From Candidatus Anaerostipes avistercoris (GTDB taxonomy: Bacteria > Bacillota > Clostridia > Lachnospirales > Lachnospiraceae), in NCBI GenBank assembly GCA_019119895.1, contig DWWD01000021.1, positions 11,789 to 75,788 of the forward strand: a DNA stretch of 64,000 bases, given 5' to 3'. Made by a program: the position numbers and the translations under genes. The notes beneath the pieces were generated by a model. That model saw only the letters and a program-made list of their open reading frames with translations. It did no database searches and was not told the DNA's origin. Position 1 is the stretch's first letter, and each line of letters starts with the position of its first letter. Below, in pieces: positions 56,197 to 59,252 of this stretch.

Positions 56197-56217
56197 ATGG
56201 GGACAGGAGGAAAGATT

Positions 56218-56631
56218 ATGGAACATATTTCAAAAATCGTAGTCAGATATGCAGAAACGGATCAGATGGGAATCGCTCATCACAGCTGCTACGCGGTATG
56301 GTTTGAAGTCGCAAGGACAGAATTTATCAAATCAGCAGGCATTTCCTATACGGAAGTAGAAGATATGGGAATCATCCTGCCTCTGACGTTCCTGGAGTGC
56401 AGGTACAAGACAGCGGCGCTGTATGAAGATGAACTGGAAATTCACGCAAAACTTACGAAACTTACGCCGGTAAGGCTGGAATTCTCTTATGAAGTCAAGA
56501 GAGATGGAGAAGTGATCGCCACAGGAAAGACCGGACACGGCATGGTCAGCAAAGATCTGAAGCCGATGAATGTAAAAAAAGAACACCCGGATCTGTACCG
56601 GATGTTTGAATCAGCCCTGGAGACGGCTTAA
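56218..56631 (+). CDS. acyl-CoA thioesterase (YbgC/FadM hot-dog family)
   Basis: VRYAETDQMGIAHH..Y..WFE.ART. Start at ATG 56218 behind AGGAGG. Confidence 0.92.
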   Translation: MEHISKIVVRYAETDQMGIAHHSCYAVWFEVARTEFIKSAGISYTEVEDMGIILPLTFLECRYKTAALYEDELEIHAKLTKLTPVRLEFSYEVKRDGEVIATGKTGHGMVSKDLKPMNVKKEHPDLYRMFESALETA

Positions 56632-57063
56632 TTGTTCCACAAGGATCAGCCGCATAAGCTGATGAGGGAACGTAAGTCTCCCAAAACTTAATTTCATACG
56701 GCCTTTTGATACTGCGGCCGGGGACAGTCCCAGCGAGCCTCCGATGAGAAAGGAGACACAGGATACGGAATCCTGCTTCAGCTGATTCCATTTTTCCTGA
56801 AATTCTTCGGTGGAAAGGGGAGTCCCTTCAATACACAAAGGAATGACAAAACTGTGAGAAGGAATCCGGGATATGATACGGGCTCCTTCTTTTTCTTTGA
56901 TTCTTTCCTCTTCTTTCTGACTTGCGCCGTCAGGAGTTTTCTCGTCCGGCAGTTCTATGATTTCAAATTCATATCGCTTTCGGATTTCTTTTGCATAGCG
57001 GTTGATCAGCTTTTTTAAATAATCTTCTTTTATTTTTCCCACGCAGATGATTTGTATTTTCAT
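56611..57063 (-). CDS. rlmH: RlmH paralogue A: SAM-binding knot intact, C-terminal tail missing
   Basis: VGKIKE.Y, ELPDEK, IGGSLGLS, LSFGRLTFPHQLMRLILVEQ, then LSRLQG* instead of IYRAF.I...PYHK. Confidence 0.85.
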   Translation of the reverse strand: MKIQIICVGKIKEDYLKKLINRYAKEIRKRYEFEIIELPDEKTPDGASQKEEERIKEKEGARIISRIPSHSFVIPLCIEGTPLSTEEFQEKWNQLKQDSVSCVSFLIGGSLGLSPAAVSKGRMKLSFGRLTFPHQLMRLILVEQLSRLQG

Positions 57064-57274
57064 AAAAAATCCTTTCTTTCCGGGTCATGATCTGTTCTGA
57101 TTTTACAGCATTGACAGCAGGAAAGCAACCGGCGCCGGGAAACAAAAGAGAATCATCCGGGTTTTTGCAAATTGAGAATGTTTCCCGCTTCGGACTGGAC
57201 GGGCTTTCCGGGATGGGGTATAATATAATGAAATCTGAGGGAATATCAGAACAATGAAAACTGGAGGAACATAT

Positions 57275-57895
57275 TTGAAAATAAAAAAATCGACAATTAT
57301 TATTTTGGTGATAAGCTGGATTTTATTTTTGGGGGCGTGTCTCGTCGCTTTTTATCAATTGGAACAGATGAAGGAAGCCAGGATTACAAATGAAAAGATA
57401 TTTAAGGATAAATCGACCGAACAGATTTCGGATGAACCTGAAGAATACGCAGAAGTGCGAGAGTTTATGGCTGATTATTACAGCTGTATCCAGAATAATG
57501 ATCAGCAGAAGCTGAAATCCATGGTGGAAGACAGTCAGGAGATGAAAAAGCAGCAGGACAGCCTGAAACAGTATATCGAAGAGTATCAGAGCCTTATTTA
57601 CAAAGTGGAAAGTGTGGAAGATACGAAAGATTATATTGTATATGTCTCCTATCAGTTAAAGATCAAAGGAATCAAGACACCTGCGCCGGGGATGACCCCT
57701 TATTATCTGAAGAGACAGGGAGATTCTTTTGTGATCCGGAATAATGAGGATCATGATACCGATGCCATCAGAGCCGCGAAACAGAAAAGTCTTGCCCGTA
57801 AGGAAAATCAGGATCTCATTCAGAAAGTAAATGAAGATTATGAGGAAGCGGTGAAATCCGATGATCAGTTAAAAGATTTTTTGAAGGACGAATAG
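57275..57895 (+). CDS. hypothetical membrane-anchored protein (possible NTF2-like extracellular domain)
   Basis: N-terminal TM; VREFMADYY, YIVYVSYQLKIKGI.TPAPG...YYL. Likely TTG start at 57275 behind GGAGG. Confidence 0.7.
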   Translation: MKIKKSTIIILVISWILFLGACLVAFYQLEQMKEARITNEKIFKDKSTEQISDEPEEYAEVREFMADYYSCIQNNDQQKLKSMVEDSQEMKKQQDSLKQYIEEYQSLIYKVESVEDTKDYIVYVSYQLKIKGIKTPAPGMTPYYLKRQGDSFVIRNNEDHDTDAIRAAKQKSLARKENQDLIQKVNEDYEEAVKSDDQLKDFLKDE

Positions 57896-57899
57896 AACG

Positions 57900-58304
57900 A
57901 TGATGAGAATTCAGGTATTTATACAGCAGAAAAAGGCAGATTCTTTGTATACAGCGGCAATGGATGAATATTTAAAGCGGCTCAGAGCCTATGCGGCCGT
58001 TTCCGTAACGTATCTTAAAAGTGAAAAGCAGATGGAAAAAGCTGTGGCAAAGAGCAGAAAGAAGTTTTTTGTCACCAGCGGAAAGAAAACGATGACAAGC
58101 CCGGAACTGGCGGAAAAGATAGAGGATTTTTCTGTCAGAGGAGAATCATCCATTGATTTTTTTATCGGAGAAGAACCGGGAGAAAGAATGGAAACTTTCA
58201 GGATTTCTTCCTTTACGATGAATTCATTTCTGACCGCGACTGTGCTTCTGGAACAAATCTACCGGGCGTACCGGATCATTCATCATCAGGCATATCATAA
58301 GTAA
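57900..58304 (+). CDS. rlmH: RlmH paralogue B: C-terminal tail intact, SAM-binding motifs degenerate
   Basis: EYLKRL..YA, S.ELAE.I, IDFFIG, LLEQIYRAYRII....YHK. GGSxGL is replaced by GEEPGE and TFPH by TMNS. Confidence 0.8.
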   Translation: MMRIQVFIQQKKADSLYTAAMDEYLKRLRAYAAVSVTYLKSEKQMEKAVAKSRKKFFVTSGKKTMTSPELAEKIEDFSVRGESSIDFFIGEEPGERMETFRISSFTMNSFLTATVLLEQIYRAYRIIHHQAYHK

Positions 58305-58340: not shown

Positions 58341-59252
58341 ATGGAGTTTAAGACACCGACGTTAGAAGACAAAGAACGGATCGATTCTTTTTTTGAGGAA
58401 GAGTCGACGAGAAGCTGTGATTTTAACACGGCAAATATTATTTTGTGGAATCAGTTTTACAAATGTCAGTATGCAGTTGTCCACGATACTTTTATTATGA
58501 GGACAGACGAGGAAGGAGAGTCGTTTTCTTTCCCGATGGGAAAAGGAGATAAGAAAAAAGCGATTGAAGAAATCATGGAATACTGCCGGGAAAAGGGGAT
58601 TCCATTTGTAATGAACGGGATTACCCATGAAATGGAAGAGCAGATGAAAGAGATGTTCGGGGATATCTTTCAGGTAGAATATGACAGAGACGCTGCAGAT
58701 TATGTTTATGAAAGGGAGAAGCTGGCGGCGCTGAGCGGAAAGAAGCTTCACGGCAAACGCAATCATATCAACCGATTCAAAGATAACCACCAGTGGTCTT
58801 ATGAGGAATTGAACGATGAAAATCAGCTGGAAGCTCTGGCAATGCTTATGGAATGGAAAATGCAGAACTGCGCGCCGGAGGATCTGGAGAAGCATGAGGA
58901 AATCTGTGTTTCCAAGAACAGCCTGATTTATTATAAAGAGCTGGGACTGGTGGGAGGAATCCTGCGGGCAGACGGTAAGATCGTCGGCCTGTCCCTGGGA
59001 GAGCCGGCTGTAAATCCTGATACATTTGTGGTGCATATTGAGAAAGCCTTTCCAGATGTCCAGGGCGCATATCCGATGATCAATCAGCAGTTTGTACTCC
59101 ATGAAATGGAAGGTTTCACTTATGTGAACCGGGAAGAAGATATGGGAGAAGAAGGATTAAGGAAAGCAAAAATGTCATACCGTCCCGCATTTATGCTGGA
59201 AAAAGGATTTTTGCGGTTCCGTCCGGCAGATACTGCGGCGGAAATAAAATAA
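58341..59252 (+). CDS. stand-alone DUF2156 (aminoacyl-phosphatidylglycerol synthase C-terminal-like) protein
   Basis: DYVY..E.L..L.GKK.H.KRNH.NRF, HIEKA, Y..INQ.F, YVNREEDMG..GLRKAK.SY.P. No TM domain. Confidence 0.85.
   Translation: MEFKTPTLEDKERIDSFFEEESTRSCDFNTANIILWNQFYKCQYAVVHDTFIMRTDEEGESFSFPMGKGDKKKAIEEIMEYCREKGIPFVMNGITHEMEEQMKEMFGDIFQVEYDRDAADYVYEREKLAALSGKKLHGKRNHINRFKDNHQWSYEELNDENQLEALAMLMEWKMQNCAPEDLEKHEEICVSKNSLIYYKELGLVGGILRADGKIVGLSLGEPAVNPDTFVVHIEKAFPDVQGAYPMINQQFVLHEMEGFTYVNREEDMGEEGLRKAKMSYRPAFMLEKGFLRFRPADTAAEIK

Follow-up and report, generated by a model that had tools for sequence, protein, structure and literature searches.

RlmH (YbeA, YydA or OrfX; COG1576, PF02590, NCBIfam NF000985 and TIGR00246) is a homodimeric methyltransferase that forms 3-methylpseudouridine at position 1915 (m3Ψ1915) of 23S rRNA. 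It is the minimal SPOUT methyltransferase, represented in the Protein Data Bank (PDB) by entries 1NS5, 5TWJ, 1TO0 and 4FAK. We analysed a stretch of 64,000 nucleotides from Candidatus Anaerostipes avistercoris (contig DWWD01000021.1, positions 11,789 to 75,788; the window) in which two RlmH-like genes, called here RlmH-A and RlmH-B (A and B; Table 1), appear to divide this enzyme between them. E. coli RlmH is a dimer with a composite active site: the monomer bound to S-adenosylmethionine (SAM) supplies the pocket and contributes K11, K42 and R43 to the putative RNA site, which the partner monomer lines with R25, R26, R142 and R154, contributing also E138 and the C-terminal Y152-H153-R154 (Koh et al. 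2017, PMC5430550). The E138A/Q, Y152F, H153F and R154A mutants are inactive while retaining dimerisation and SAM binding, although some natural RlmH orthologues terminate at H153 (PMC5430550). Only one of the two SAM sites is tight (KD1 ~5.6 µM, KD2 ~1 mM; PMC5430550), and a 2022 review concludes that probably just one cofactor site per dimer takes part in catalysis (PMC9508554).

TrmD, the m1G37 enzyme, is also a homodimeric antiparallel SPOUT protein, with half-of-the-sites reactivity and inter-subunit sites to which the partner chain supplies the D/E-R motif (PMC5430550, PMC1829167). It resembles the A:B dimer proposed here in being a SPOUT dimer with inter-subunit active sites, but its chains are identical and no natural split into specialised subunits has been described. 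Trm6-Trm61 (TRMT6/TRMT61A; tRNA m1A58), METTL3-METTL14 and the TbPRMT1 enzyme-prozyme are paralogue pairs derived from homo-oligomeric ancestors, in which one protein binds SAM, a pseudoenzyme partner aids substrate binding or the active site, and both are required. A and B are likewise paralogues that co-occur and of which one lacks the cofactor motifs. They differ from these pairs in belonging to the SPOUT family and being bacterial, whereas the known pairs are Rossmann-fold enzymes and mostly eukaryotic. Moreover, the non-SAM subunit B would supply proposed catalytic residues (the Y152 region) rather than RNA binding alone, and the losses are reciprocal, the subunit that keeps the SAM motifs being, as far as its sequence indicates, defective alone too. 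PMC1829167 cites Trm6-Trm61 as a precedent, and the sole related item in the literature searched is a 2007 speculation, in the same paper, on the yeast pair Ygr283c/Ymr310c. Neither a heterodimeric RlmH nor any other heterodimeric SPOUT methyltransferase was found described in that literature; an original prediction made from the letters of the window had noted no described heterodimeric RlmH either.

We consider it probable, at roughly 0.78, that A and B together form an obligate heterodimeric RlmH acting as the 23S rRNA m3Ψ1915 methyltransferase. The two genes are divergent and 836 bp apart (about 840 bp in the original prediction), and both match the PF02590 profile well above its cut-off of 27 bits: A with 146.5 bits over positions 1-143 of 154, B with 68.2 bits over positions 1-154. 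The NCBIfam RlmH equivalog NF000985 has a cut-off of 172, which A exceeds narrowly (177.4) and B does not reach (62.4); B lies far under every RlmH equivalog cut-off and is a member of the family by domain, not an equivalog. A carries SAM-binding bights 1-3 (LCIEG within PLCIEG, IGGSLGL and TFPHQLMR) and retains K11 and the PDEKTP...EG loop. It ends in LVEQLSRLQG and lacks the catalytic tail equivalent to E. coli Y152-H153-R154; the R26 of the K25/R26 pair is missing as well, RYAKEI replacing EYxKRL. B, which ends in LLEQIYRAYRIIHHQAYHK, presents the reverse. Its SAM pocket is degenerate (IGEEPGE in place of GGSLG, TMNS in place of TFPH) and the K42/R43...EG loop of ~19 residues is deleted, and EYLKRL and LLEQIYRAYRIxxxQxYHK, which hold the equivalents of E. 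coli R25, R26, E138, R142, Y152, H153 and R154, are invariant. By the criteria of these motifs B cannot be expected to bind SAM, and the full set of features that define an RlmH in sequence is found only in A and B together.

The missing tail of A is not the product of a frameshift or an assembly error, which we ruled out because no tail-like peptide or remnant follows the A stop codon in any of the three translated frames. The short end is common to every other Anaerostipes genome in which the 3' end of A is assembled.

The alignment used for column-by-column residue counts comprised sequences of relatives: 35 of A type, 35 of B type and 18 canonical. E. coli numbering was grounded by aligning a canonical relative with YbeA/1NS5, which places EYxKR at E22-R26, DEK at K42, GGSxG at 103-107 (GGPEG in E. 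coli), TFPH at 126-129, EQxYR at 138-142 and YHK at 152-154. On the cofactor side, the G of VGK is present in 35/35 A and 0 B, the ...EG loop after K42 is kept in A and deleted in 35/35 B, and B no longer has the L-x-I-x-G of bight 1 that A retains. The GGSxG core of bight 2 is found in all 35 A sequences and its second Gly is absent from B; in bight 3 the T, F, P and H occur in 35, 33, 34 and 35 of the 35 A sequences, TFPH is lost in 35/35 B, and the Q of the T-F-P-H-Q motif is an A-type feature that B has also lost. B is hydrophobic at the positions of the E. coli interface residues L122, L125 and L127 (35/35, 32/35 and 27/35), and the neighbouring pocket residues T126, P128 and H129 are gone. 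On the partner side, E22, K25 and R26 are each present in 35/35 B, the R26 column of A holding mostly E or I; Y141 and R142 are present in 35/35 B, with R142 in only 12/35 A; and I146, Y152, H153 and K154 are present in 35/35 B and absent from A. Both proteins retain E138 and Q139.

Complementary losses recur in 35/35 of the pairs aligned from other genomes, a pattern far beyond chance. In terms of this alignment, what has been lost falls without exception in one half-site of the composite site published for E. coli, and what has been retained falls in the other. The live half-site would be intact, combining the pocket, K11 and K42 loop of A with the K25/R26, E138/R142 and tail of B; the decayed one would combine what has been lost, namely the pocket and loop of B and the R26, R142 (in most genomes) and tail of A. 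Neither an A:A nor a B:B homodimer could, judged from these residues, build a complete site. The original prediction had described E. coli RlmH as asymmetric and composite, as Koh et al. 2017 (PMC5430550) report, and had proposed complementary losses from the motifs PLCIEG, IGGSLGL and TFPH in A and EYLKRL, IGEEPGE and TMNS in B. All of these motifs are present, and the partition is more exact than was claimed, in that A also lacks R26 (and mostly R142) and B lacks the K42/R43 loop.

In the mechanism that we propose, A and B would assemble as an antiparallel RlmH dimer in which A binds SAM and B provides RNA-binding and catalytic residues in trans. The K/R pair of helix alpha-1, the E-R pair of helix alpha-5 and the C-terminal YHK of B would close over the pocket of A and over helix 69 (H69) on the 70S ribosome, and one methyl group would be transferred per dimer, at N3 of Ψ1915. 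The asymmetry of the canonical dimer would thereby be genetically fixed and the unused second half-site would have decayed, and A alone and B alone would each be expected to be inactive. We infer the physical pairing of A with B, SAM binding by A only, a single cofactor per dimer and the Ψ1915 target from the sequences. The Ψ substrate can be made, because RluA-family pseudouridine synthases are encoded in the genome. Compared with canonical RlmH, the family and fold are shared, the composite active-site residues are complete when A and B are summed, and target and chemistry are presumably the same; the differences are that two genes are involved, each without the complementary half, and that the single active site per dimer would be fixed genetically here, whereas in the canonical enzyme it comes from negative cooperativity. 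The feature is real and conserved, and very likely constitutes a two-subunit RlmH, a new form within the known family.

Selection on the two genes was estimated by the Nei-Gojobori method as the ratio of nonsynonymous to synonymous substitution rates (dN/dS) in 21 unsaturated Anaerostipes pairs. The median was 0.081 for A and 0.084 for B; the unsaturated pairs give 0.04-0.11 for both genes and closely related pairs 0.02-0.11, and both genes are under purifying selection. Single-chain AlphaFold2 (AF2) models are confident for A (predicted local distance difference test, pLDDT, 92.9; predicted template modelling score, pTM, 0.89) and B (pLDDT 92.0, pTM 0.87), and both proteins are modelled as a SPOUT fold. 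When the B model was compared with the PDB, the top 14 matches were all RlmH structures (template modelling scores, TM, 0.77-0.84). Its low dN/dS and its confident, RlmH-like AF2 model mark B as a pseudoenzyme that is folded and under constraint rather than a copy in decay. These results bear on the possibility that A and B are both functionless, decaying remnants of a duplicated rlmH, as might be thought from the fact that each copy lacks motifs essential in the canonical enzyme. With dN/dS near 0.08 for both genes, reading frames intact in more than 60 genomes of at least nine families and retained motifs that are invariant, this explanation is highly improbable, and pseudogene decay was ruled out by the dN/dS and conservation data. 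The same is indicated by a library of 1.84 billion representatives, in which 141 of the best 150 matches are B-type by motif; clustered at 50% identity, the B-type sequences form at least 141 clusters, which are open reading frames (ORFs) of 120-150 aa. No natural A-B fusion protein occurs among those best 150 representatives.

A six-frame hidden Markov model (HMM) search of the organism's own assembly (2.83 Mb, 49 contigs, completeness 100%) found no third PF02590 locus; A and B are the sole matches, which excludes a canonical rlmH elsewhere in the genome, a finding that would have refuted the original prediction. In all 20 Anaerostipes genomes searched, the A-type and the B-type gene occur once each and a canonical gene is absent, and the same holds for three genomes from other genera or families (G021, G027 and G037); in the same order-level comparison 16 other genomes have a single canonical rlmH and 2 have none. 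The truncation of A, which might have been private to this strain, is thus common to 20/20 Anaerostipes genomes and to many other genera. The survey was extended across the family with an even sample of 401 reference genomes, each at least 90% complete, that represent 347 genera. A and B were found in 16 of the 401 (14 genera), a single canonical gene in 367 and none in 18. No genome among the 401 has a solo A, a solo B, or A or B plus a canonical gene, so that the pair and canonical rlmH are mutually exclusive in this sample; one genus (g3) holds both states. A candidate exception, G175, was rejected and counts among the 367, being one canonical gene divided over two contigs. In the reference-genome samples, therefore, A and B are always together and never with a complete rlmH, which is the co-occurrence expected by the original prediction.

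A class-level sample searched with a B-specific profile added B in 10 more genomes from 6 other families. Each of these 10 has an A-type sequence and no canonical gene, the A sequence in G554 and G745 being just a contig-end fragment; a further candidate, G581, was rejected as B-type because it is a short canonical RlmH. The pair occurs in at least 8 Clostridia families besides Lachnospiraceae. Among 80 named loci, 23 carry B, and in 17 of the 23 an A-type gene lies no more than 4 kb away; loci with pairs include those of Zhenhengia yiwuensis, Clostridium prolinivorans and metagenome-assembled genomes (MAGs) of Peptostreptococcaceae and Vallitaleaceae. In G015 (locus L096) and G010 (L113) A is more than 4 kb from B, and genome searches for the A partner found one for L100 and L102 and none for L098. 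One 1.7-Mb MAG has B without A, and MAG contamination limits the weight of such exceptions. In genera other than Anaerostipes, A and B are mostly neighbours, either tail to tail (0-140 bp apart or with overlapping stops) or in tandem.

The absence of any PF02590 gene from 18 of the 401 family genomes, all at least 90% complete, is an observation in its own right; because of it, m3Ψ1915 methylation seems to be dispensable and to have been repeatedly lost in the family. That dispensability is also one of the points in favour of a heterodimer that now methylates some other nucleotide of rRNA or tRNA in place of Ψ1915, with m3Ψ1915 lost in such lineages. Outside its invariant motifs B evolves fast, and a surface loop that in canonical RlmH forms part of the RNA-site lining is missing from it; both would fit a change of target. 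Even so, the live half-site residues that E. coli work assigns to H69 binding and catalysis are all invariant, and the pair excludes canonical rlmH as a functional replacement would; we regard retargeting as quite unlikely and retain Ψ1915 as the probable target.

The history of the pair was examined in two trees. The first, of 88 family and order sequences, recovers A as one clade (support 88/85; 34 of the 35 A sequences at 100/98) and B as another (100/99). The internal topologies of the two clades agree, which indicates that A and B have been co-inherited within the family. In a wider tree of 141 sequences B is still one clade (100/100) and A needs 6 changes, and an approximately unbiased (AU) test rejects A monophyly (ΔlnL 119.7, p = 0.0085). 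A single symmetric duplication is therefore rejected as the full history in the broad sample, with A polyphyletic and B monophyletic: B arose once, and tail loss in its A-type partners occurred several times. Of the duplication followed by subfunctionalisation that the original prediction envisaged, the complementary specialisation of the subunits stands, in sequence; one symmetric duplication does not.

Partners of B at different stages of reduction were found outside Anaerostipes. In Zhenhengia yiwuensis, A (L099 4542-5012, minus strand) ends in EQIYRGYRIINGEP; it lacks YHK only, still has EYSKRL, and is sister to a canonical RlmH (100/91). The A of G568 (L172) ends at the same codon. These two partners, in L099 and L172, are unrelated; both stop exactly at the Tyr152 codon (ending in GEP and NEP, respectively) and are otherwise canonical. 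Further near-canonical partners of B terminate in PYHL or AYSS. Dependence on B is graded across lineages, because such near-canonical partners exist, and the Anaerostipes A, with no tail, no R26 and mostly no R142, is at the far end of the reduction series. The simplest reading of the history is that B arose once and can coexist with a complete partner, and that partners then lost their tails independently, repeated tail loss being consistent with a ratchet that increases dependence on B. A fuller version of this account, to which we would give a little less than even odds, is that B is a tail donor of single origin that reached its present range in Clostridia by vertical descent and probably also by transfer, and that the resident RlmH repeatedly lost its tail in a dependency ratchet, from a canonical enzyme with B through PYHL, AYSS and a stop at codon 152 to the Anaerostipes A. 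Between L099 and L129 the B-A pair keeps its synteny, though the B proteins are just 55% identical. At another locus (L101 6529-6879, plus strand; G828, a Peptostreptococcaceae MAG) there is a second B copy, broken after 117 aa, that adjoins a PYHL-ended RlmH and is itself 2 kb from an intact B; it looks like a recent local duplication that has since decayed.

Several observations weigh against an obligate heterodimer. E138 is conserved in 34/35 A sequences too, which a simple split does not need, and the assignment of half-sites leans on E. coli structures without a bound ribosome. In Anaerostipes A and B are not adjacent, lying 0.8-38 kb apart, and B probably shares an operon with an unrelated membrane protein (orf213). 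In some lineages B is paired with a near-canonical RlmH (ending in PYHL or AYSS, or stopping before YHK). Finally, one genome, G829 (Bacillota MAG OH_CBB_11; L192, L198/L129), has a complete rlmH on a separate contig besides A and B. There the copy adjoining B ends in NEAYSS and the complete rlmH in NEPYHK, with 155/160 aligned residues identical (97%); no B lies alongside the complete gene, and homology between the two loci is limited to the gene and part of the upstream region. G829 is either a mixture of strains or a true transitional three-gene genome. Given the near-canonical partners and this complete rlmH, B can coexist with a possibly self-sufficient RlmH.

Such coexistence would be expected if A were self-sufficient as a tail-less A:A homodimer and B were a catalytically dead paralogue doing something else, such as binding the ribosome or H69 or acting as a regulator, perhaps in connection with the membrane protein with which it appears to share a conserved operon, away from A, in Anaerostipes. 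The natural orthologues that end at H153 (PMC5430550) also lend this explanation some support. However, single substitutions in the tail (Y152F, H153F and R154A) are enough to kill the E. coli enzyme (PMC5430550), and A lacks all three of these residues, R26 and usually R142. Invariance in B coincides precisely with the residues that act in trans in catalysis and RNA binding, and neither A nor B is ever solo in the reference-genome samples. We consider a separate job for B unlikely, and the obligate heterodimer remains our preferred reading.

The remaining features of the locus are collected in Table 1. The convergent thioesterase gene and A share 21 nt at their 3' ends, an overlap already described in the original prediction. 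The hairpin and T-run 5 nt past the A stop are likely an intrinsic terminator of A, which sits within the last codons of the thioesterase gene. On the other side, orf213 has an N-terminal transmembrane segment and matched no Pfam or NCBIfam family. Its stop codon is only 4 nt ahead of the B ATG, and orf213 and B are therefore probably co-transcribed; the GAAGGA ribosome-binding site of B lies within the 3' end of orf213. The other Anaerostipes loci that were inspected also have the gene immediately 5' of B, even where B and A are 20-38 kb apart, and so does one further genus (L083). Between A and the orf213-B unit there are promoter-like sites on the plus strand at 57196-57224 (TGGACG-17-TATAAT) and on the minus strand at 57249-57220, which are consensus matches only and whose count is not enriched over shuffled sequence. 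The gene 3' of B (58341-59252, plus strand) encodes an LPG_synthase_C domain (DUF2156-type; PF09924, 178 bits) that stands alone, the membrane domain of MprF being absent, and is followed by pyrB, pyrI and relA/spoT.

Table 1. Positions, in window coordinates, of the two RlmH-like genes and the features around them.
Feature	Position	Strand	Basis
YbgC/4HBT-type thioesterase gene, convergent with A	56197-56631	plus	ORF listing
Terminator-like hairpin and T-run, 5 nt past the A stop	56582-56606	minus	sequence scan
RlmH-A, proposed cofactor subunit (150 aa)	56611-57063	minus	ORF listing, profile matches, column counts, AF2 model
Divergent intergenic region (190 bp) between A and the orf213-B unit	57064-57253		promoter-like sites on both strands
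orf213, conserved membrane-anchored protein (213 aa); context only	57254-57895	plus	ORF listing, profile search
RlmH-B, proposed tail-donor pseudo-subunit (134 aa)	57900-58304	plus	ORF listing, profile matches, column counts, AF2 model

The proposed mechanism of RlmH rests on ribosome-free E. coli structures and mutagenesis, and a natural two-gene version would provide an independent evolutionary test of it, since the split between A and B sorts the residues into those that act in cis and those that act in trans. With one defined active site per dimer, A:B would also be a cleaner target for structures of the complex with the 70S ribosome. If real, the heterodimer would be without precedent among the SPOUT enzymes of which we found a record. 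It would stand in bacteria as the equivalent of Trm6-Trm61 or METTL3-METTL14, and would show, in replicate, homomers turning into obligate heteromers. If the ratchet is also correct, it would represent naturally replicated constructive neutral evolution at the inter-subunit active site of a knotted enzyme. For Anaerostipes and other Lachnospiraceae, which are abundant butyrate producers of the human gut, the practical consequence is one of annotation: B is likely to be labelled RlmH or hypothetical and A a complete RlmH, and neither label would be accurate alone.

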